Source: Pseudoprimorskyibacter sp.
GTDB lineage: Bacteria; Pseudomonadota; Alphaproteobacteria; Rhodobacterales; Rhodobacteraceae
DNA: 64,000 nucleotides
Reading direction: 5' to 3'
Assembly (NCBI GenBank): GCA_034670065.1
Contig: JAXMOG010000003.1
Location: 226,392-290,391 of the forward strand
Part shown: piece by piece, positions 2,377 to 58,267 of the stretch
Position numbering within the stretch: position 1 is the stretch's first letter
Layout: every line of letters starts with the position of its first letter
The notes under the pieces: generated by a model
What the model was told of the DNA's origin: nothing
Databases searched by the model: none
Seen by the model: the letters and a program-made list of their open reading frames with translations, nothing else
Made by a program: the position numbers and the translations under genes

Positions 2377-2390
2377 TTGCAGCGCAGCAA
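2377..2390. promoter_or_regulatory. FNR/CRP-family (NnrR/Dnr-like) box candidate TTGCA-GCGC-AGCAA
   Basis: TTG-N8-CAA palindrome with a TTGC....GCAA core, centred about 62 nt upstream of ATG 2446. A perfect palindrome TGCAATTGCA lies next to it at 2358-2367. Confidence 0.3.
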
Positions 2391-2445
2391 TGACGATTGA
2401 CCACACGCGGACGTGACTGGTTAAAGCTGTAGCAGCGACCGGACA

Positions 2446-4539
2446 ATGGCGTCCGGGATTATTGAAATGCATGACGCATTTCGATGGGGAGCAGCGAAGC
2501 TCTTAGGCTCTGGCGATCAGCCACAGCCCAGGATTGTTTTGGATGCTCATATGGCAATAGCTGCTCAGATAAATACCCCAGATCACCTTCTTGCTGCCGA
2601 ACTTCCTGTCCTCGTGATTGGAGGCGGCCCGGTTGGCATGCGAGTGGCGCAGCTGCTCAAAAGCGATGGCGTCGAGGTAATGGTGTTAAGCGCCGAACAC
2701 CATCCGCCCTACAACCGCGTTCGACTGACACCGCTTTTGTCCGGTGAGGTACAGTTTGGCGAAATCACCTTGCCACAAAAGACTGATAACGGTGAAGAAA
2801 TTCCGCTGATCTCGGGGCAGCGCGTACTGTCAATTGACCGGGACAATAAGAAAGTCACAACCAGTGACGGGGCGGTTTGGCCCTACTCCAAGCTGGTGAT
2901 TGCCACTGGTTCATCAGCGTTTATTCCCGGTATCGAGGGCAAAGACCTGTCTGGCGTATTTGCGTTCCGGACTGCAGATGATGCGTCGGCGCTGTTGGCC
3001 CGGTCTTTTTCCGCGCGCAAGGTTGCTGTTATCGGCGGCGGATTATTAGGGCTGGAAGCTGCGCGCGGCATGAAGCAGCGTCAGTGCGATGTAACGGTGA
3101 TCGAACACGAAAGCCGGTTGATGCCCCGCCAGTTGGATACCGAGGCCAGCAAACTGCTGGAGACCCGTATTACCGACATGGGCATCGCCGTGCGCACTGG
3201 CACTGCCGTCAAACAGATTGCTGGCACACACAAGGTGACTGGCCTGCATTTTGCCGATCATACGCATCTGGAATGCGACACCGTGATCCTGTGCACCGGC
3301 GTGCGAGCCAATGTTGATTTGGCCAGACAGTCTGGCTTGGCATTCAATCGCGGTGTCATCGTTAACGATCAGATGCAGACGAATGATCCAGACATTTTTG
3401 CCGTGGGCGAATGCGCCCAACATGATGGGCAGATGTATGGATTGGTTGGGCCCGGATACGCCCAAGCCGAAGTCGCGGCCAAGGTCATCGCCGGACAGCA
3501 TGCCGCCTTTCGCGTCAGCCCCCCGGCCACCAAGCTGAAAGTGGTTGGGGCCGATGTGTTTTCGGTGGGCGATGTCGAACAACTGCAAGACATGGTTGGT
3601 GTGCGCCGCCACATCTGGAAGGCCGACGGGCTGTACCGCTGCTTGTATGTTCGGCGCGGGCAACTGGTGGGGGCCAATGCGGTAGGCCTGTGGGATCAGG
3701 CAGGACGCGTACAGGACGCAGCGCATTCAGGCGCAACGATCTATCCTTGGATGATTCACCGGTTTCGCAAGACGGGCGCGATCTGGCTGGACAACAGCGA
3801 AGACTTGGCCGACCTGCCTGACGCAACGACCATTTGCAATTGCACAGGCGTCACATGCGGGCAAATTCGCGGAGCCATCGCGCAGGGCTGCACCGATGCA
3901 CCGGCAATCAGCGCGCGCACGGGTGCGGGCACCGTATGTGGCACGTGCCAGCCTGTTCTGGAAGAACTGGTGAATGCAGGTGGTCCGCCAAAGCCTGTCG
4001 CCTTCTCCAAACCTCTGCTGGCCCTGTCAGGATTGGCCGCGCTAGCCGCACTTATTCCAATTCTGGTGGGCATGGTCCCGCTGCCAAATAGCTTTGACCC
4101 GGACAGCCTGCGCGTTTGGTTGTGGCGGGACAATATCGTCAAACAATGGAGCGGTTTCATCCTGTTGGGCCTGACGATTTCCGCAGCTCTGATTGGTCTG
4201 CGCAAACGCATTCGCCTGATGGACCGGCTGGGCAGCTATGATGGCTGGCGGTTGGTTCATATCGTTCTGGGGGCCATGATCCTTGTTGGATTTCTGGCTC
4301 ATACCGGGTTTCGCATGGGCGCAAATCTGAATTTCATCCTGGGTTTCAGCTTTGTTGCCACACTGATTTTCGGCGCGGCATCAGGCCTGGCCACCGGTGG
4401 CGAACATAAGCTGCGCGAAAAACGAATTGGCACGGCCCGCAAGCCAGCGCGCCGTTGGCCCACATGGTTGCATATTGCAGCGGTGTGGCCCCTGCCCGTC
4501 TTGCTGATGATCCATATCCTGACGGCGTACACATATTGA
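2446..4539 (+). CDS. NirB-N-terminal-type FAD/NAD(P)H oxidoreductase with BFD-like [2Fe-2S] motif fused to a 5-TM, four-histidine (di-heme b-like) membrane domain
   Basis: Two Rossmann motifs (VLVIGGGPVGMRVA; KVAVIGGGLLGLEAA) and FAVGECAQH. BFD-type cysteines are ICNCTGVTCGQ...GTVCGTCQP. The C-terminal about 175 aa has 5 predicted TM helices and H-x13-H in two of them. No siroheme/nitrite-reductase catalytic domain is present. The start is uncertain (ATG 2446, 2467 or 2551). Confidence 0.8.
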   Translation: MASGIIEMHDAFRWGAAKLLGSGDQPQPRIVLDAHMAIAAQINTPDHLLAAELPVLVIGGGPVGMRVAQLLKSDGVEVMVLSAEHHPPYNRVRLTPLLSGEVQFGEITLPQKTDNGEEIPLISGQRVLSIDRDNKKVTTSDGAVWPYSKLVIATGSSAFIPGIEGKDLSGVFAFRTADDASALLARSFSARKVAVIGGGLLGLEAARGMKQRQCDVTVIEHESRLMPRQLDTEASKLLETRITDMGIAVRTGTAVKQIAGTHKVTGLHFADHTHLECDTVILCTGVRANVDLARQSGLAFNRGVIVNDQMQTNDPDIFAVGECAQHDGQMYGLVGPGYAQAEVAAKVIAGQHAAFRVSPPATKLKVVGADVFSVGDVEQLQDMVGVRRHIWKADGLYRCLYVRRGQLVGANAVGLWDQAGRVQDAAHSGATIYPWMIHRFRKTGAIWLDNSEDLADLPDATTICNCTGVTCGQIRGAIAQGCTDAPAISARTGAGTVCGTCQPVLEELVNAGGPPKPVAFSKPLLALSGLAALAALIPILVGMVPLPNSFDPDSLRVWLWRDNIVKQWSGFILLGLTISAALIGLRKRIRLMDRLGSYDGWRLVHIVLGAMILVGFLAHTGFRMGANLNFILGFSFVATLIFGAASGLATGGEHKLREKRIGTARKPARRWPTWLHIAAVWPLPVLLMIHILTAYTY

Positions 4540-4541
4540 CC

Positions 4542-6044
4542 ATGCAAATATCCCGCAAACATATCCTGTGGACCTTGTGGTTGGTCGGTACGCTGATCGC
4601 AGCGGTGGCTGGTGCCAAGACGCTCTTCGTGGCGGGTGATCAGACGGCCCTGATGCCGGGTAACACAACCGGCGTGCATCACCAGTTCGAAATTGCCTGC
4701 GCCACGTGCCACACGTCTGATGTATTTGCCGATGTTGGCAAGGTCCGCAAGGACATCAACAAAACCTGCCTGACCTGCCACAAGGATGAGCTGAAAGCCT
4801 CGGACGACAGCCACCCGAAGAAGAAATTCACCAATCCCCGCATGGCCCCGTATTGGGAACAGGTCGATGGGCGCTATTGCACCACCTGCCATATCGAACA
4901 CGTGCCCGAAGATACGCTGACCAGCATGGTTACTCTGCCCGGCGATTTTTGTGTCGCCTGCCATTCAGAGGGTGAACAAGACGTCCGCGTGAACCGGCCC
5001 AGCCACGAAGGGCTGACCTTTGACACCTGTGCATCTGCCGGCTGCCATAACTTTCACGACAATCGCGCACTCTATGAGGACTTCCTAGTCAAACACGGAA
5101 ATGAGCCGTGGCTATTGCCGGAAACAATTGTGCCCGCCGCTGCGCTGGCGCGTGATCGTGCGCGTGCCAAAAGCAGCGCTGAAATCGATGCCTATCTGGC
5201 GGCGATCACCGCCCCCACACAGACCGTTGAAGAAAAGGTTGCCCATGACTGGGCTGCGTCCGCACATGCCGCTGCAGACGTTGGCTGCGGTGGATGCCAT
5301 GCCCCCGAGGCGGAAACCGAAGAACAAATAGCAGCAGATTGGATCGAGTCCCCAAGCGAAGCCATTTGCGCAGATTGCCACAAGTCCGAAGCCAAGACAT
5401 TTGCGCTTGGCCGCCATGGCATGCGCAGACATCCCAAAATCGCAAAGCCACGGGATGGCGCATCCGCACTGTCCGTTCTTGGCATGGACGAGCCCCCAGA
5501 ATTCTTGATGTCGGTCTTGGCCAAATATCTGGATGATCCTGCGCCACCGCCCATGATGTCCACCGCCGAGGCGCGCGTCCCCCTGCGCCCCGAAGCGCAT
5601 GGGCAAGACCTGACATGTAGCACCTGTCACAAACCGCATGAGCAAAACCTGGAGTTTGCCGCAGTGGGTGCCTGCTTGACCTGTCACAATGATGAACACA
5701 GCCTGGCCTATGAAAGCAGTCCCCATTTCGAACTGTATCAAGCTGAGCTGAGCGGCGCCCTGCCCCCCGGAAGCGGAGTCACCTGCGCCACTTGCCATAT
5801 GCCCAAGACTGAAAAATCCGGGCGTGTAACGTCGAACCACAACCAGAATGACACTCTTCGTCCCAATGAAAAGATGATCCGCCCCGTCTGCATGTCATGC
5901 CACGGCTTGGGCTTTGCAATTGATGCGCTGGCGGATCCCGCCCTCGTCTCAAACAACTTTTCAGGACAACCAGATCGCCACATCGAAAGCATCGATTGGG
6001 CGTTAAAACGCGTGGAACCACCCGAGACTGACGCCAATCAATGA
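4542..6044 (+). CDS. Membrane-anchored or secreted multiheme cytochrome c (10 CxxCH + 1 CxxxxCH)
   Basis: ATG lies 2 nt after the upstream stop. The N-terminal hydrophobic segment is ILWTLWLVGTLIAAVAGA. Heme motifs are CATCH, CLTCH, CTTCH, CVACH, CASAGCH, CGGCH, CADCH, CSTCH, CLTCH, CATCH(MPK) and CMSCH. The ORF-track start 4455 is rejected because it overlaps the upstream gene. Confidence 0.85.
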   Translation: MQISRKHILWTLWLVGTLIAAVAGAKTLFVAGDQTALMPGNTTGVHHQFEIACATCHTSDVFADVGKVRKDINKTCLTCHKDELKASDDSHPKKKFTNPRMAPYWEQVDGRYCTTCHIEHVPEDTLTSMVTLPGDFCVACHSEGEQDVRVNRPSHEGLTFDTCASAGCHNFHDNRALYEDFLVKHGNEPWLLPETIVPAAALARDRARAKSSAEIDAYLAAITAPTQTVEEKVAHDWAASAHAAADVGCGGCHAPEAETEEQIAADWIESPSEAICADCHKSEAKTFALGRHGMRRHPKIAKPRDGASALSVLGMDEPPEFLMSVLAKYLDDPAPPPMMSTAEARVPLRPEAHGQDLTCSTCHKPHEQNLEFAAVGACLTCHNDEHSLAYESSPHFELYQAELSGALPPGSGVTCATCHMPKTEKSGRVTSNHNQNDTLRPNEKMIRPVCMSCHGLGFAIDALADPALVSNNFSGQPDRHIESIDWALKRVEPPETDANQ

Positions 6045-6093
6045 CAAGCGGTCCCACGCACCCTGCAAACCAAAAAAGCAACAGGAGTTAAGA

Positions 6094-6669
6094 ATGTATA
6101 TGAAGATGGGAAAATTAAAAGCGGTAGCCCTAAGCGGCATGTTGGCCTTGGGCGCGATGCAGCCCGCTACAGCTGAAGAAGGCCTGGATTACCAAACCGT
6201 GTCCGACCTTTTGCACCTTGTTATGAGCTCTGACCGTACCGTCTATACGCGCATGATCGTTAACCGTCTGGCTGTTCAGGAAAAAGTCATCACGGCCTCT
6301 GAGCACTTTGTTGACGAAAAAGCTCTGGTTCTGCCCGCGCAGATGTTCCGCTTTGGCTCTGAAATGGTTGCCGAAGAAACCGATGCGTTCTCGTATTCGT
6401 TGCTGTCGCTTTGGCCCATCAACAAGCAAAACGCGCCTACAACCGATCTGGAAAAAGAAGGTCTGACCTACATCGCCGAAAACATTGGCGAGAACTTCTA
6501 TGGCCGTGAAGAGCTGGGCGGAGTCGAGTACTTCACCGCTGTTTACCCAGACATCGCCGTGGCCGAGGCCTGCTCATCTTGCCACAATGATCACAAAGAC
6601 TCCCCCCGCACCGACTTTGAAGGTGGTGATGTAATGGGCGGCGTCGTCATTCGTATTCCGATTGACTAA
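6094..6669 (+). CDS. Periplasmic Tll0287-like (DUF3365) c-type heme protein
   Basis: AGGAG lies 8 nt upstream of the ATG. Signal peptide is MKMGKLKAVALSGMLALGAMQPATA. There is a single C-terminal CSSCH. Overall it resembles the DUF3365/Tll0287 PAS-like heme family, judged from memory of the family. Confidence 0.7.
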   Translation: MYMKMGKLKAVALSGMLALGAMQPATAEEGLDYQTVSDLLHLVMSSDRTVYTRMIVNRLAVQEKVITASEHFVDEKALVLPAQMFRFGSEMVAEETDAFSYSLLSLWPINKQNAPTTDLEKEGLTYIAENIGENFYGREELGGVEYFTAVYPDIAVAEACSSCHNDHKDSPRTDFEGGDVMGGVVIRIPID

Positions 6670-7125
6670 ATGAAACGCTACCTCGGCGCGGCGGTCTTCG
6701 CCGTGTTCCCATTCTTGACCCTCGAACAGGGGCTGGCGGATACCACGCAAGCCTCTGCTCGGGGGCTTGACGGTTTTGTAACCGTCGATCGGCTGAGCGA
6801 TCCTTCAGATCCGCTGCTGCAACAAGGGCGTGCCGTCTGGGCTGACACCTGCCAGAACTGCCACGGCGGAAACAAAGCCACTGGTGCCCCCAAAATCACC
6901 TCCACTCGCGCCTGGGCTCCACGAATTGATCAGGGGATGGCCGTTCTTATCGACCATGCCATCAACGGTTTCGTTGGGCCGCGTTACACCCAAATGCCAC
7001 CACGTGGCGCCAACCCAGACCTGAGCGATGAACAGGTTTCTGCTGCTGTTGCCTTTATGGTTTGGGCCAGCGGTGGGGCGGATGTCGCGTTGGAATACAC
7101 TCAAAAAATGAAAGGGATGGAATAA
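6670..7125 (+). CDS. Class I cytochrome c (c5/c555-like), periplasmic
   Basis: ATG abuts the upstream TAA. It has a signal peptide, one CQNCH, and a distal ...YTQMPPRG (Met ligand region). Confidence 0.8.
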   Translation: MKRYLGAAVFAVFPFLTLEQGLADTTQASARGLDGFVTVDRLSDPSDPLLQQGRAVWADTCQNCHGGNKATGAPKITSTRAWAPRIDQGMAVLIDHAINGFVGPRYTQMPPRGANPDLSDEQVSAAVAFMVWASGGADVALEYTQKMKGME

Positions 7126-7538
7126 TGACACCTGAACAGATTGATCTGGTTCAATCCACATTCAAGAAAGTTGCCCCAATCGCCGATACAGCGGCCGATA
7201 TCTTCTATGACCGCCTGTTCGAGATCGCACCGGACGTGCGCGGTCTGTTCCCAGAAGTGATGACAGACCAGAAAAAGAAGCTGATGCAAATGATCGGCAT
7301 TGCTGTGAACGGCCTGCGTGATCTGGATGCGATTGTGCCTGCGGTTCAAGATCTTGGCGCACGTCACCGTGGCTACGCTGTGAAAGAAGAGCATTATGAT
7401 GTGGTCGGCGCGGCACTGCTCTACACACTGGGCATAGGTTTGGGCGATGACTTCACCCCCGAAGCCGAAGCCGCCTGGGCCGAAACCTACGGCCTGCTTG
7501 CAGGTGTCATGATAGAGGCGCAGCAGGCAGCAGCCTGA
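7125..7538 (+). CDS. Single-domain globin (sensor-globin/protoglobin-related), cytoplasmic
   Basis: MTPEQIDLVQSTFKKVAPIADTAADIFYDRLFEIAPDVRGLF...LGARHRGYAVKEEHYDVVGAALLYTL is a typical bacterial globin-domain pattern with a proximal His in ARHRGY. There is no signal peptide. The start overlaps the upstream stop (TAATG). Confidence 0.8.
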   Translation: MTPEQIDLVQSTFKKVAPIADTAADIFYDRLFEIAPDVRGLFPEVMTDQKKKLMQMIGIAVNGLRDLDAIVPAVQDLGARHRGYAVKEEHYDVVGAALLYTLGIGLGDDFTPEAEAAWAETYGLLAGVMIEAQQAAA

Positions 7539-7590: not shown

Positions 7591-7620
7591 AAAAAGCCCG
7601 CCGAAATCGGCGGGCTTTCT
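7591..7620. terminator. Bidirectional Rho-independent terminator between the redox operon and the RTX gene
   Basis: Perfect 8-bp stem GCCCGCCG/CGGCGGGC (7596-7603 / 7608-7615) with loop AAAT, flanked by AAAAA on the 5' side and TTT on the 3' side. Confidence 0.75.
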
Positions 7621-7639: not shown

Positions 7640-10600
7640 TCAGACGAAGATCATTTCGTCTGTGATCGTAGCCAAATCGGTGTATTCGAACGTAATCGTT
7701 GTACCTTGATCGGCGAACACAACATTCGTACCCGTCTGAACCATGTTGGCAATCGCATCCGCGCCAGTGGAGTACCCGAAGCCTTCAAACTCCATGAAAT
7801 CCCAAACTTCCAGGTTGCTGACAGAGTTCGTGGCGCCATCAGCGACATCAAACACAAACATATCTGCCATTATGCCACCTGCCAGATGGTTGGTGCCCGA
7901 ACCGGCATCCAGTTCATCATTGATGCCCTGGCCACGAATCCAGCCTTTGACCGAAATCGCCGTATTGTTGATGAATTCCTGCGACTGCGAGAAGCCTTGA
8001 ACAACAGCTTCGCGCGTTCCGCCGCCAGCCAATTGCGCCACCCAGGCATTCAGACCGCCTGCATCAGGCGCACGGTTCAGAACGTTTTGGTAAAGCAGCG
8101 TTACAAAGGCCGTATCGTCCAACGAACCATAGGTGTTCTGGAATTCGGTACTGCCAACGAAGCCGCTGACAACGGACAAGAACGACGTGCCGTCACCCAA
8201 AAACTCTGTCCAACCCAAGAAACCGCCTATGTCTGGCGCGCGATCCAGTGTTGCCTGGTACAGGCGGAACACATCGTCGGAATAGCTGCTCTGGCTATAC
8301 GTTTCGATAAAGCCGGCAGCGCCCGCCGTGGTGTTGTTGACGAATTCCGTACTTTCCGAGAAGCCCAGAACAACGCTTTCGCGCGACGCGCCGCCGTCCA
8401 GTTGACCGACCCAGGCATTCAAACCACCGGTATCCGGAGCACGGCCCAGAACGTTCTGGTAGAGCAATGTTACAAAGCCGGTGTTATCCAGCGAACCGTA
8501 TGCCGCCTGGAATTCCGCACTGCCAACGAAGCCTGCAGCGGCTTGCGTCAACGAGCCAGTGCCCTCACCCACATACTGCGTCCAACCTTCGTGACCGGCC
8601 GCATCTGGCGCACGGTTCAGCGTGGCCTGATACAAGCGGTACACTTGGTACGCTTCGGTCATGTGAGCTGCGATATCGAACGCATCACCATACAGGATGT
8701 CGTTGCCGCCATCGCCGTAGATTTCATCCGCGCCCTCTTCACCCGAAATCGTATCGTTGCCGATATTGCCTTCGATGAAGTCATCAGAGACATCGCCGGA
8801 CAGACTGTCGTTGCCCGCATAGCCCATGATATCATCTTCGGCTGGCGTTCCGGCCGAGGTGACACCGGCATATCCCAGCGAGGAGGTCAGAACGGTCTGG
8901 TCGGTAAAGACCAGTTGCTCAATCCCGTACAATTCGTCTGTGCCATCAGCAGATGTAATCTGAACGGCGCCATTCGATGCTGTGCCAACCGTGACAGAGG
9001 CGAATGTGACATTGAACACGGCTTGGTCGATACCCGTTCCACCAACCAAAGTGTCGTTGCCGGACGAACCGGTCAGCACGTCATTGCCGCGCCCACCTGT
9101 CAGGGTGTCATTGCCGGCAGCACCGGTCAGCGTGTCATTGCCTTCCAAACCTTCGAAGGTCACACCCGTTGACCCGGTGGTGATCATGCTGTCGCTGAAT
9201 TCCGAACCACGGATTTGTTCAATATTTGCCAGTGTGTCCGTATCGCCAAAGGTGTCGGTTACAACGCCTGTGGTCAGGTTGGCCACGATACCGCTGGTGC
9301 CGCCAAAGTCACCTTCGTTCTCATAGCTCACGATGTCCCAGCCGTTGCGGCCATCAATCGTGTCATCCCCGGCCATACCGCTGAATCCTTCGCGATGCGT
9401 CAGGGCAGAACCGATCAGATAGTCATCATCCTGTGAGGCTTCAAAGAATGTCGCATAGGTGAAGGTATCGCTGAGCGACGTGGCATCGCCACTAACCGCA
9501 GTACCCAGACCCTGGCCACCAACAGCGATCGTCAGACCACCAACGCCACCCACATCCGCATAGCTTAGCGACAGGCCTTCGCCTGCGGCAAACCAACCTG
9601 CGTGACCGATGATGGTGTTGTTGCCAAGGCCTGACGCAACCATGTCAGCGCCGTTGCCGGTGGTGCCACCTTGCGAGGCATCAATGACATCGTCACCGTC
9701 GCCACCAATCAGTTCGTCTTTCCCATCACCGCCGGTCAACGTGTCGTTGCCGTCGTCACCGTCCAGAAGAACGTCAAAGCCCACGTTAAACGCGCTGATC
9801 ACGTCGTCATGCGTGGTACCTGTGATCTGCTCGACATTTGTGATCGTGTCAGTATCGCCATGGGTGTCGACAACTGTATTGGCCGCCAGCGTTGCGGTGA
9901 TGGCCATGTCTGGTCCAGTCCAGGCAGATTCCCAACGATAGGAAACTTCATCCCAGCCGTCGCCGCCGTCGATCGTGTCGTTGCCGCCATGACCTTCGAA
10001 GGTTTCGCCCACCAACATGTCGTCGCTGCCGGTGATCAAGTCTGCGTCCTGCGATCCGCCAAAGGAACGCGTGTAAGAGAAACTGTCGTTCACGCTGTTG
10101 TCGCCAGCAACGATAGTACCCGCGCCGTTGATACCGGAGTTGATGGTCAGACCACCTACACCACTGATATCACCATAGCTGATTTCGATACCGCCACCCA
10201 TGGCCCACAGGCCAGAGTGACCGATGATCACGTTGTTACCCAGACCCGGCGTAACAAAGTCGCCGCCCTTCTGGCCTGCAACGGAACCGGCCGACGCGTC
10301 AATCAGGTCATCGCCGATCGAGCCGTCCATGTTGTCTTGGCCGTCACCACCGCGCAGGGTGTCATTGCCCGTGCCGCCGCGCAAACTGTCGTCGCCCGTA
10401 CCACCGGATGCATCCAGCAAGTCATCGCCTGCGCCGCCGGTCAGGTTGTCGTCACCAATGGTCGAGATCAGCGTGTCGTTGCCAGTACCACCCTGCAGAC
10501 GGTCATCCGCAGAAGCGTCTGTCATGCTGTCATTGCCGTCAGAGCCCAGAATGTCTTCGACGTTTGTCAGCGTCTGCGTAAAGGCCACGCCATTATAGCT

Positions 10601-11344
10601 GCCGGTTGCCGTGCCCGCTGAAAGGTCAACCACCAGATTGGTGATCAGCGCATTGCTGAAGCTGACTTCGTCAAAGCCCGCACCACCATCAATGGTGTCG
10701 TTGCCGCCAAAGCCAGAGAACTCATCACGGTTGGCTGTACCAACAAAGTTGTCGGCGAATGTCGTGCCGTCCAGCTGGATTGTACCGGACCCAGATTGCG
10801 TGACGGTTTCAGCATTGCCAAACCCATCATTTGCCACAACACCGGTTGCCAAGTTGACGCTGGCCCCTTGCGTCGCCGCGCCGCTGGTACCAACGCTGAA
10901 GTCCAGATTAACGATAGTGTAAGTGTTCGTAGTGAACGTGTAGCTGTCTGCCCCTTCGCCACCAATAAAGATGAAGAAGCCATCATTGCCGGGCGTCAGG
11001 GAAAAACTGTCCGCTCCGGTTGTGCCGATCACTTCCAGCCCTGCGCCGGTACGCGCCCGGTATTCAGCAGCCAGTTGGACATCAACCAAAGTGTCGGTGC
11101 CGCTCGTCTTTGTGACAGTACCCGTATTGGCACTGGTGTTCAGCGCCACTGCAATCGGGCCAGTTGTGGCCGAATAGTCCAGAACGTAGCTTGAGGAAGA
11201 GGTCGACGAAGAAAATTCAATCTGGTCGTTCCCGGCAGATCCGTTGATCGTATCTCCACCAGAGTTCGAAACCGGTTGGATCGTATCGTCACCCGACGTT
11301 CCAAACAGATCGTCGCCTCCGGTTGTGCCAGCAATAACAGCCAT
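7640..11344 (-). CDS. Giant secreted RTX-type calcium-binding repeat protein with two C-terminal DUF4214 repeats
   Basis: 1234 aa with many GGxGxD nonapeptide runs (GGAGNDTLTGGRGNDVLTGSSGNDTLVGGTGID). An about 190-aa module is duplicated (IIGHSGLWAMGGGIEISYGD... / IIGHAGWFAAGEGLSLSYAD...). Two DUF4214-like units are present (LYQATLNRAPDAAG...LLYQNVLGRAPDTGGLNAWV). There is no Cys and no N-terminal signal peptide. An AAGGAAG SD precedes the ATG. Confidence 0.9.
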   Translation of the reverse strand: MAVIAGTTGGDDLFGTSGDDTIQPVSNSGGDTINGSAGNDQIEFSSSTSSSSYVLDYSATTGPIAVALNTSANTGTVTKTSGTDTLVDVQLAAEYRARTGAGLEVIGTTGADSFSLTPGNDGFFIFIGGEGADSYTFTTNTYTIVNLDFSVGTSGAATQGASVNLATGVVANDGFGNAETVTQSGSGTIQLDGTTFADNFVGTANRDEFSGFGGNDTIDGGAGFDEVSFSNALITNLVVDLSAGTATGSYNGVAFTQTLTNVEDILGSDGNDSMTDASADDRLQGGTGNDTLISTIGDDNLTGGAGDDLLDASGGTGDDSLRGGTGNDTLRGGDGQDNMDGSIGDDLIDASAGSVAGQKGGDFVTPGLGNNVIIGHSGLWAMGGGIEISYGDISGVGGLTINSGINGAGTIVAGDNSVNDSFSYTRSFGGSQDADLITGSDDMLVGETFEGHGGNDTIDGGDGWDEVSYRWESAWTGPDMAITATLAANTVVDTHGDTDTITNVEQITGTTHDDVISAFNVGFDVLLDGDDGNDTLTGGDGKDELIGGDGDDVIDASQGGTTGNGADMVASGLGNNTIIGHAGWFAAGEGLSLSYADVGGVGGLTIAVGGQGLGTAVSGDATSLSDTFTYATFFEASQDDDYLIGSALTHREGFSGMAGDDTIDGRNGWDIVSYENEGDFGGTSGIVANLTTGVVTDTFGDTDTLANIEQIRGSEFSDSMITTGSTGVTFEGLEGNDTLTGAAGNDTLTGGRGNDVLTGSSGNDTLVGGTGIDQAVFNVTFASVTVGTASNGAVQITSADGTDELYGIEQLVFTDQTVLTSSLGYAGVTSAGTPAEDDIMGYAGNDSLSGDVSDDFIEGNIGNDTISGEEGADEIYGDGGNDILYGDAFDIAAHMTEAYQVYRLYQATLNRAPDAAGHEGWTQYVGEGTGSLTQAAAGFVGSAEFQAAYGSLDNTGFVTLLYQNVLGRAPDTGGLNAWVGQLDGGASRESVVLGFSESTEFVNNTTAGAAGFIETYSQSSYSDDVFRLYQATLDRAPDIGGFLGWTEFLGDGTSFLSVVSGFVGSTEFQNTYGSLDDTAFVTLLYQNVLNRAPDAGGLNAWVAQLAGGGTREAVVQGFSQSQEFINNTAISVKGWIRGQGINDELDAGSGTNHLAGGIMADMFVFDVADGATNSVSNLEVWDFMEFEGFGYSTGADAIANMVQTGTNVVFADQGTTITFEYTDLATITDEMIFV

Positions 11345-58037: not shown

Positions 58038-58070
58038 AAAAAAAACCCCGTTTCGGCCAAGCGAAAGGGG
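58038..58070 (-). terminator. Intrinsic terminator/attenuator inside the metZ leader
   Basis: On the minus strand CCCCUUUCG-(6 nt)-CGAAA(C)GGGG is followed by U8, 39 nt upstream of the metZ ATG. Confidence 0.6.
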
Positions 58071-58082
58071 GCTTTCGTCTGA

Positions 58083-58133
58083 CCTTTTAGCGGAATATTT
58101 AACGTGGCCCGCAATCCGGTAACAAATCGCCAC
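58083..58133 (-). promoter_or_regulatory. SAM-II-like (metA-motif) riboswitch aptamer candidate
   Basis: The minus strand reads GUGGCGAUUUGUUACCGGAUUGCGGGCCACGUUAAAUAUUCCGCUAAAAGG. It has a P1 stem GUGGC/GCCAC, GAUUU after P1, and an A-rich 3' tail CCGCUAAAA able to pair with the loop UUGCGG (pseudoknot). It lies upstream of a methionine-biosynthesis gene. Confidence 0.5.
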
Positions 58134-58267
58134 GCCGTCGAAATAAAGCCCGCACAGCAACAGGTCAAGCCTGTCTTACACAGGGCACATCACCGCAATG
58201 CGCGCATTTTGCCCCCCATTGCCGATCCCGCCGAAACCCGCATGATGGCCCAAACTCAGGAGGCCCC

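Follow-up and report, generated by a model that had tools for sequence, protein, structure and literature searches.

Enzymes of the eukaryotic NADPH oxidase/ferric reductase family (NOX, DUOX, FRE), like their bacterial NOX homologs, pass electrons from cytoplasmic NAD(P)H through a flavin to two stacked bis-His b hemes, whose ligands are spaced ~13–14 residues apart on two helices, and hand them to an acceptor outside. Bacteria are thought to feed their periplasmic cytochromes from the quinone pool, and membrane b-heme modules that link reductants of the cytoplasm or membrane to periplasmic redox proteins, multiheme cytochromes c among them, include MsrPQ with Fre, Hmc/Tmc of sulfate reducers, and CbcL/CymA. 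To our knowledge, in no system of this group is the b-heme domain part of one protein with a BFD domain and an NAD(P)H flavoprotein. Here we analyze a five-gene operon of Pseudoprimorskyibacter sp. (Rhodobacteraceae), located at 2446–7538 in a 64-kb stretch of contig JAXMOG010000003.1 (the window, to which all positions refer unless a locus is named), whose first gene encodes such a fusion with a putative b-heme domain. The operon is real and widely conserved; it resembles NOX/FRE enzymes, and MsrQ-type transfer combined with periplasmic wires, without being a member of those families. On balance, we favor the reading that it is a self-contained transmembrane electron-export chain running from NADH to periplasmic hemes. 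Full-text literature searches returned no published description of the operon or of its transmembrane (TM) domain, and those candidates from them that were followed up (the Tenderiales Uet cluster, Idiomarina, and the NolR regulon of S. meliloti) were unrelated.

An earlier note made from the sequence alone had reported five packed same-strand genes at this position. All five + strand open reading frames (ORFs) are present at the coordinates it gave, and its four junctions were verified by direct reading. Gene 1 (2446..4539 as called, 697 amino acids) encodes P1, which joins a flavin adenine dinucleotide (FAD)/NADH reductase, a BFD [2Fe-2S] domain, and a five-TM four-His domain. Its stop (TGA, 4537–4539) is separated by 'cc' from the ATG at 4542 that opens gene 2 (4542..6044), encoding P2, an 11-heme cytochrome c that is membrane-anchored (or secreted). 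Gene 2 stops at TGA 6042–6044 and, after a 49-nucleotide (nt) gap with an AGGAG at 6083–6087, six nt ahead of ATG 6094, gene 3 (6094..6669) encodes P3, a periplasmic, stand-alone Tll0287-like/sCache_heme monoheme c protein. The TAA of gene 3 (6667–6669) abuts ATG 6670 of gene 4 (6670..7125), which encodes P4, a periplasmic class-I monoheme cytochrome c (CQNCH), and a TAATG overlap at 7123–7127 leads into gene 5 (7125..7538), encoding P5, a cytoplasmic single-domain globin of the flavohemoglobin/Vgb (F) lineage. Pfam and NCBIfam profile searches bore out this parts list for all five products.

The likeness of this operon to NOX/FRE lies in the predicted electron path, but the parts are not homologous, with no Ferric_reduct, FAD_binding_8, or NAD_binding_6 match in the operon proteins. 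In P1 the flavoprotein comes first and a TM domain of five helices follows on its C-terminal side, a [2Fe-2S] cluster is placed between flavin and hemes, and the output would run into an 11-heme cytochrome c rather than directly to O2 or Fe(III). The operon also differs from MsrPQ, Hmc/Tmc, and CbcL/CymA in that the P1 TM domain matches none of their families in Pfam or PDB profile searches.

The flavoprotein module of P1 (2608..3726, + strand, residues 55–427) contains two Rossmann GxGxxG motifs (residues 59–64 and 196–201) and a Rubredoxin_C domain (Pfam, 2.8e-11). Matches to Pyr_redox_2 (PF07992, 1.8e-63, 215 bits against a cut-off of 26.1) and PF00070 (85.8 bits) place P1 among the flavoprotein reductases with two dinucleotide-binding domains, and the structures nearest to it are those of rubredoxin and ferredoxin reductases and of 3KLJ, a 'NirB-family N-terminal domain'. 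Among known systems this part of P1 stands closest to the N-terminal half of NirB, to NorW, and to rubredoxin/ferredoxin reductases. The FAD, NADH, and BFD [2Fe-2S] parts align with NirB, residues 55–512 matching positions 2–468 of 794 in the NirB model TIGR02374. However, P1 is not a full NirB nitrite reductase: both NirB models score below cut-off (405.6 bits against 578.35 for TIGR02374, 276 against 883 for NF011565), a Pfam search found no NIR_SIR domains in P1, and the TM domain stands where NirB has its siroheme/[4Fe-4S] catalytic half. In this fold an acidic residue at the end of the NAD-site strand usually marks a preference for NADH over NADPH; in P1 this strand ends ...VTVIEHE, which suggests that the enzyme prefers NADH. 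The BFD-like [2Fe-2S] domain (3829..3975, + strand, residues 462–510) belongs to Fer2_BFD (PF04324, 2e-11, 44.5 bits against a cut-off of 26) and has the CxC...CxxC cysteines in place (Cys464, 466, 498, and 501).

The TM domain (4015..4524, + strand, residues 524–693) shows five hydrophobic helices by hydropathy, at 524–542, 567–585, 603–621, 630–648, and 675–693. It holds five His, four of them within helices (605 and 619 in TM3, 676 and 690 in TM5) and one, His654, in a loop. The four intrahelical His are invariant among homologs (11 sequences) and are retained in the type-B and type-C relatives described below. Within each pair they are 14 residues apart (i,i+14), with one His near each membrane face. 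Such i,i+14 spacing on two helices is that of the transmembrane di-heme ligands of cytochrome b and the NOX/FRE family. With two invariant His pairs on two TM helices, P1 carries the sequence pattern of transmembrane di-heme b cytochromes, the classic mark of a membrane-spanning stack of two bis-His hemes, and would accordingly be expected to bind heme b. The loops at 586–602 and 649–674 contain 6 and 8 Lys/Arg, and by the positive-inside rule these K/R-rich loops and the flavoprotein would be cytoplasmic with the C-terminus outside. Profiles and hydropathy thus agree with the earlier description of P1 as a NirB-N-terminal-type reductase with a BFD motif, lacking the siroheme half and carrying a 5-TM four-His domain.

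Pfam has no family for this TM domain. The best match, to cytochrome b561 (PF01292), scored 14.6 bits and fell short of the cut-off of 30.1; there were also weak sub-threshold matches to DUF4405 and DUF2231, and Ferric_reduct (PF01794), the NOX/FRE family, gave no match at E <= 10. A profile search of the PDB with the TM domain found no relative of it, the sole matches being to the BFD part, with a weak match to 4E6K; Foldseek with a model of the TM domain likewise returned nothing from the PDB at E < 0.1 (best E = 0.4). A profile search run exhaustively over 1.84 billion representative proteins resolved the family into 730 representative clusters. The domain is C-terminal in every one of the best 150 family representatives, most of which are proteins of 640–690 amino acids. 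The four-His TM family is a small, dedicated one.

Our locus survey covered the best 80 genome loci, which were searched by tblastn with each window protein; 76 of them were assigned, 35 to type A and 41 to type B. Of the 80 loci, 76 repeat the gene order, which is more than chance would give. In 73 of the 76 type A/B loci the TM protein, P2, and P3 are neighbors read from one strand, and the invariant core, as read from these loci, is the TM domain, the 11-heme cytochrome, and the Tll0287/Cache-heme protein. The proposed five-gene unit therefore stands for this core, and does not extend in full to P4 (24 of 35 type-A loci) or to the globin (31/35 type A, 0/41 type B). All-against-all ORF clustering across the 80 loci found no further conserved neighbors, and each genome that was looked at has different flanking genes. 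Homologs of P2 fall into more than 3,000 clusters, and a relative of it is encoded in at least 570 species-representative genomes. The species of the window seems to be absent from that genome set, in which the best match is 69% identical (Thalassococcus halodurans).

Three cytoplasmic heads are found on this core. Type A, as in the window, has the NirB-type FAD/NADH reductase and BFD [2Fe-2S] domain fused to the TM domain; P3 accompanies it in 34 of 35 loci, the exception being a truncated contig. Its hosts are Rhodobacteraceae, Minwuia, Hwanghaeella, Acuticoccus, Albimonas, and Lentilitoribacter. In type B a GPP34-like domain precedes a TM domain of 35–46% identity that keeps all four His; P2 is next to it, P3 is present in 39 of 41 loci, and P4 is in none (0/41). 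Hosts are mostly Gammaproteobacteria (Arenicellales, Pseudomonadales, and Chromatiales), together with Defluviicoccus and metagenome-assembled genomes (MAGs) of uncultured Alphaproteobacteria, and the names of many type-B MAGs suggest sponge symbionts. The GPP34 (GOLPH3-like) head forms the cytoplasmic N-terminus of these proteins (e.g., locus L004, 6406–7587, and loci L033–L085). GPP34 was described in 2025 as a sponge-symbiosis effector with P450 and Rieske fusions; a membrane-redox fusion was not described there (PMC11706023). The fusion seen in type B suggests a redox-partner or membrane role for GPP34, at least in this subfamily.

Type C consists of BFD, then a flavoprotein of the ferredoxin-NADP-reductase (FNR) type (FAD_binding_6 and NAD_binding_1) that is unrelated to the NirB-type one, then the same four-His TM domain, and includes two long members. 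One (P0232, 951 amino acids) begins with an EF-hand pair and the other (P0242, 1013 amino acids) with three cNMP-binding domains. EF-hands also occur in NOX5 and DUOX, and these regulatory domains recall Ca2+ control. On the type-C contigs (L091 704–3559, L089 6881–9922, and L090 2187–5228) a full-length P2 homolog of 38–39% identity lies directly downstream, and a P3 homolog of 59% identity follows in L091, where the contig extends. One source labels a type-C relative 'nitric-oxide synthase'. Since two non-homologous flavoproteins, each with a BFD domain, share the same TM domain and the same partners, the TM domain would receive NAD(P)H electrons through a [2Fe-2S] cluster, and this two-head pattern is the best available evidence for that step. 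It lends independent support to the route from NAD(P)H through FAD, [2Fe-2S], and b hemes to the periplasm that the earlier note had predicted from the window.

The foremost alternative to an electron-export chain, although an unlikely one, casts the TM domain in the role of NapC, CymA, NrfH, or CbcL, as a dehydrogenase of quinol (or a reductase of quinone). The core would then be an ordinary respiratory branch that leads from the quinone pool to an acceptor in the periplasm, and the heads would only regulate it or feed the quinone site. Type B, which has no redox head, fits this view, as do the sub-threshold TM matches to cytochrome b561, DUF4405, and DUF2231 and the EF-hand or cNMP regulatory domains on type-C heads. 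However, two unrelated NAD(P)H flavoproteins with BFD are hard to explain as regulators, no quinone-site motif or quinol-dehydrogenase family was detected in the Pfam and PDB profile searches, and most of the best 150 TM-family representatives have type-A length.

P2 contains 10 CXXCH motifs and one CX4CH (CASAGCH), which bears out the 11 heme-binding motifs originally counted. All 11 are invariant in 24 diverse homologs, as are 12 additional non-motif His, so that every heme could be bis-His ligated. Its N-terminal hydrophobic helix (residues 7–30) has a conserved LWxLW, unusual for a cleaved signal peptide, which suggests that the helix is instead a retained membrane anchor. Generic multiheme cytochrome c families are what Pfam recognizes in P2, and Foldseek with a P2 model gave no PDB match at E < 0.1. 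With enough invariant His to ligate every heme and no CXXCK of the NrfA kind, P2 looks like an electron wire.

The earlier note leaned toward P2 as a catalytic NrfA-, ONR-, or HAO-like reductase of nitrite, hydroxylamine, or nitric oxide (NO) under FNR/NnrR control, where ONR is octaheme nitrite reductase, and we now regard this as distinctly improbable. It has some sequence in its favor. Residues 394–466 resemble hemes 7–8 of ONR and hemes 4–5 of NrfA (CATCHMPK...HNQN...CMSCH, the last two hemes of P2; profile E ~ 3e-9), Cytochrom_C552 passes its cut-off of 24.1 bits with 39.9 bits across a stretch of 57 columns, public annotations often label P2 homologs 'NrfA', and both the globin and the Cache-heme protein point to NO. 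However, the similarity is confined to an electron-transfer di-heme module, the same kind of module also fits P2 residues 219–288, and with only the last one significant P2 is not collinear with the whole of TvNiR. There is no whole-protein similarity to ONR or NrfA, and P2 differs from them in its 11 hemes, its N-terminal c3-like block with the CX4CH, and its membrane anchor. No CXXCK heme motif or other atypical catalytic motif was found in P2, the NrfA models NF008339 and TIGR03152 score 24.7 bits against 595 and 15.6 against 692.5, and the DmsE/MtrA-type decaheme model TIGR03508 scores 65 against 192.2, so we reject membership of P2 in the NrfA, ONR, HAO, or decaheme families, and P2 bears no mark of an N-oxide enzyme of the NrfA/HAO type. 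Twelve invariant non-motif His for 11 hemes and an FNR-like box in only 3 of 36 homologous loci add to the case against this reading.

P4 matches Cytochrome_CBB3 (PF13442, 4.8e-14) and is related to CcoP and c5 types. An ordinary class-I cytochrome c of this kind, a wire-like P2, and no evident catalytic subunit would also suit a non-catalytic NADH:cytochrome c oxidoreductase, in which P3 and P4 load the periplasmic c pool for terminal oxidases or denitrification enzymes, an overflow by which NADH would bypass complex I and bc1. We give this bypass little weight, because P4 is missing in 11 of 35 type-A loci and all type-B loci, the invariant and most conserved partner is P3 rather than the class-I cytochrome, 11 hemes far exceed what is needed to reduce a soluble cytochrome c, and the linkage to the globin is left unexplained.

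P3 belongs to the Tll0287-like family (PF11845, 69.5 bits against a cut-off of 24.1) and is the most conserved component, type-A loci having a median identity of 77% and type-B loci one of 65%. Like Tll0287 and other sCache_heme proteins it has a CXXCH, here CSSCH at residues 160–164, and it is a periplasmic domain that stands alone, as roughly half of the family do. Across 76 homologs the CSSCH, Met84, and His167 are each kept in at least 95%, and none of them varies in a subset of 12 sequences. In contrast to Tll0287 and its P. putida counterpart, P3 lacks a distal Cys and is always partnered with this multiheme cytochrome. It has no Cys outside CSSCH, and 60 of the 76 homologs have exactly two Cys, both in the motif. 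P3 is therefore not a Cys/His-ligated 'Cluster 1' sCache_heme protein, a class marked by Cys as the distal axial ligand, namely Cys68 of Tll0287 and Cys59 of its counterpart from P. putida. No PDB sequence relative of P3 was found, even with a profile, and its distal ligand thus cannot be mapped onto Tll0287.

In a 2026 preprint, the DUF3365/Tll0287 family was reclassified as heme-c Cache domains, the sensor-fused relatives were found to bind NO tightly, and all tested members generated superoxide with O2 (PMC12889525). Placement of P3 in a sensor-domain superfamily (PMC12889525), together with heads that include signaling domains (EF-hand, cNMP, GPP34), would allow inward flow from Fe(II), hydroxylamine, or a sulfur reductant, or a Cache-type redox/NO sensor relayed to the cytoplasmic head, but transfer to NAD+ would run uphill and be opposed by the membrane potential, neither a fused output domain (kinase, GGDEF, HTH) nor one conserved in the neighborhood was found, and an 11-heme chain with a flavoprotein makes an expensive sensor, so this is the least probable of the alternatives.

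P5 is a globin (PF00042, 3.9e-16, 60 bits against a cut-off of 22) whose closest structures are 3S1I and 3UBC (the Methylacidiphilum 'hemoglobin-like flavoprotein'), then Vgb and Hmp. Its Tyr28, Gln49, His81, and Tyr91 align with the residues that we take to be B10, E7, F8, and G5 of Hmp. With the F8 His and the Tyr B10/Gln E7 pocket located in this way, P5 falls in the F lineage, and the pocket so aligned is typical of NO-dioxygenase-type bacterial globins. P5 shares with Hmp its globin lineage, its pocket residues, and a genetic tie to an NADH flavoprotein. However, it is not a flavohemoglobin: it scores 79.5 bits against a cut-off of 432 for the Hmp model NF009805, matching only the globin domain (model positions 2–138 of 399), and it is a separate 137-amino-acid protein without a fused FNR-like FAD/NAD part. 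The reductase to which it is linked in type A is NirB-type rather than FNR-type. Because the globin is found only with the NirB-type head (31/35 against 0/41), P1 may also serve as the reductase of P5.

From these parts we propose how the electron-export chain would operate. NADH would be oxidized at the cytoplasmic FAD domain of P1 and the electrons passed to the BFD-type [2Fe-2S] cluster. Reduction of a b heme by a BFD [2Fe-2S] protein has a precedent in Bfd and bacterioferritin. The electrons would then cross the membrane through two bis-His b hemes in the five-helix domain, a cytoplasmic-side heme held by His605/His676 and a periplasmic-side heme held by His619/His690, and enter the membrane-anchored 11-heme wire of P2. 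The periplasmic Cache-heme protein P3 would form the end of the chain, with P4 as an optional extra carrier, and we tentatively place at P3 the reduction or binding of a small diffusible oxidant, most likely NO or O2, with low confidence. P5 would be a second client of the P1 flavoprotein, making a split flavohemoglobin for NO/O2 chemistry inside the cell. Since electrons leave the cytoplasm, such a system would dissipate membrane potential, which argues for detoxification, signaling, or reductive acquisition over respiration. The domains and the K/R-rich loops agree with the topology proposed in the earlier note (a cytoplasmic flavoprotein and [2Fe-2S] cluster, a two-heme-type TM domain, periplasmic c hemes, and a cytoplasmic globin), as we do with its judgment that the sequence does not fix the chemistry.

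Several observations weigh against this export chain. Type B, which lacks any redox head, accounts for roughly half of the top loci, and NAD(P)H input is thus not a feature of the whole family. The type-B head has no known cofactor, which argues that the TM-P2-P3 core can work without a fused NAD(P)H head, and electrons may reach it from quinol or a separate partner. The invariant Met84 could make P3 a plain six-coordinate carrier, and a stand-alone Cys/His-ligated Cache-heme protein showed weak NO binding and was assigned a proposed redox role (PMC12889525). The AlphaFold2 models of the P1 TM domain (pLDDT 64.6) and of P2 (pLDDT 61.7) are of low confidence. Finally, no NO-, O2-, or iron-responsive regulator site was identified.

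The leader of the operon contains a conserved element of another kind. The earlier note had pointed to a possible NnrR/FNR box upstream of gene 1, and an FNR/NnrR-like box, TTGCAGCGCAGCAA, is present in the window at 2377–2390. As a conserved feature we reject it, because TTG-N8-CAA occurs upstream in just 3 of 36 homologous loci, once each in two and twice in the third, at scattered positions. Motif discovery by expectation-maximization on the upstream regions of homologous loci instead found GAGCAAnGACGCTC, with a log-likelihood of 159 against 23–30 in shuffled sequences. This motif lies ~50–110 nt ahead of probable start codons, always on the sense strand, in 1–3 copies per type-A operon (among loci L008–L088; e.g., L029 3839–3858 and L016 3883–3902). 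Upstream of type-A genes its sites show an 18-fold enrichment, whereas none of the 41 type-B leaders has one. Around an asymmetric core, C-AAYGRY-G, the two arms vary yet stay complementary. No Rfam family matched in the leader, and the motif fits none of the consensus sequences of FNR, NnrR, NsrR, IscR, RirA, Irr, RegR/PrrA, sigma-54, and SoxR, as we take these to be.

Pairing of the arms was assessed at sites chosen by the core alone, 40 sites in 34 type-A loci. Standard pairs fill 83% of the cells against 58% in shuffles (none of 500 shuffles reaches the observed value), and changes on both sides of a pair number 73, where shuffles give 28. Covariation scores 0.686, compared with 0.214 in shuffles and at most 0.22 in slid registers. 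On the sense strand G.U exceeds A.C by 19 to 3, compared with 101 to 112 elsewhere, and this excess favors an RNA hairpin, with the caveat that a recurrent variant, GGGC...GCTC, supplies many of the G.U cases. The only strong covariance-model match outside the operon leaders (L016 9734–9753) lies inside a - strand ORF and was taken as chance. An Rrf2-family regulator is encoded directly upstream on the same strand in two type-A loci only (L016 3265–3693 and L024 1743–2171); its three clustered Cys are NsrR/IscR-like, a weak hint of Fe-S or NO-responsive control.

In the window, the conserved leader stem-loop is ccggaCAATGGCGtccgg at 2439..2456 (+ strand), with a 6-bp stem, its closing C-G pair included, and the hexaloop AAUGGC. 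It is the sole strict site in 128 kb, counting both strands of the window, scores 23.2 bits with the covariance model (E = 0.0016; next best 15.2 bits), and folds at -11.3 kcal/mol. A second, degenerate copy, GGGAGCAGCGAAGCUCUU, at 2487..2504 (+ strand) is the best position-weight-matrix site in the window, and its distance to the gene equals that seen in homologs; it forms a 6-bp hairpin whose stability is no better than shuffled (z = +0.5). We tentatively count a weak first copy of the core without the stem, CAATGACG, at 2382..2401 (+ strand), which is an exact core match at -220 and scores just 11.7 bits.

These positions bear on the start of gene 1. ATG 2446, the start in the 697-amino-acid call and in public gene calls, sits in the loop of the conserved hairpin, and homologs of P1 have only ~20–30 residues ahead of GGGPVG. 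Both points argue for a start downstream of the one earlier proposed, probably at TTG 2539, which is preceded by AGGA, or at ATG 2551, giving a protein ~31–35 residues shorter.

The operon is closed, as had been predicted, by a bidirectional intrinsic-terminator hairpin at 7593..7618 (both strands), with an 11-bp stem, a 4-nt loop, and a T-run on either side. Its folding energy is -28.9 kcal/mol when read from the + strand and -33 kcal/mol from the - strand, with z = -4.6 and z = -5.1, respectively. The terminator is shared with a convergent gene at 7640–11344 (- strand) encoding a 1234-amino-acid protein with RTX-type HemolysinCabind repeats and DUF4214, which is not kept beside the operon in other genomes. 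On the 5' side lie a GntR/FCD regulator (663–1367, + strand) and a GNAT acetyltransferase (1364–2188, + strand) that overlap by 4 nt; this pair is found in same-species contigs (L001 and L002) and not in other genera. Elsewhere in the window we detected a SAM-II (SAM_alpha, RF00521) riboswitch at 58067–58143 (- strand, 58 bits), which agrees with an alphaproteobacterial origin.

If the export reading is true, the operon would add to the known bacterial electron-transfer modules a heme conduit that leads directly from NAD(P)H to the periplasm, built on a TM domain without a described family. The name-bearing records of P2 relatives come largely from marine Alpha- and Gammaproteobacteria, and chemistry of NO/O2 is what the globin and the Cache-heme protein hint at. 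The three interchangeable heads make the direction of flow and the electron donor directly testable, and the leader stem-loop, an uncatalogued cis-regulatory element, could reveal the inducing signal.

Extracellular superoxide from marine heterotrophs drives redox cycling of Mn, Fe, and Hg, and we know of no enzyme yet assigned to its production. We speculate, while holding this version of the hypothesis to be rather doubtful, that the family is an independently invented bacterial analogue of NADPH oxidase: a transmembrane exporter of electrons that is driven by NAD(P)H, can be regulated by second messengers in its EF-hand and cNMP versions, and has a Cache-heme end that purposely makes superoxide in the periplasm or outside the cell, or consumes NO. 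A 2026 paper described the bacterial source of extracellular superoxide just as a 'NOX-like, DPI-sensitive' membrane-associated oxidoreductase (PMC13440305). The family offers a concrete candidate gene set for marine extracellular superoxide production, and this NADPH oxidase-like reading, if true, would identify the long-sought 'NOX-like, DPI-sensitive membrane oxidoreductase' of marine heterotrophs such as roseobacters.

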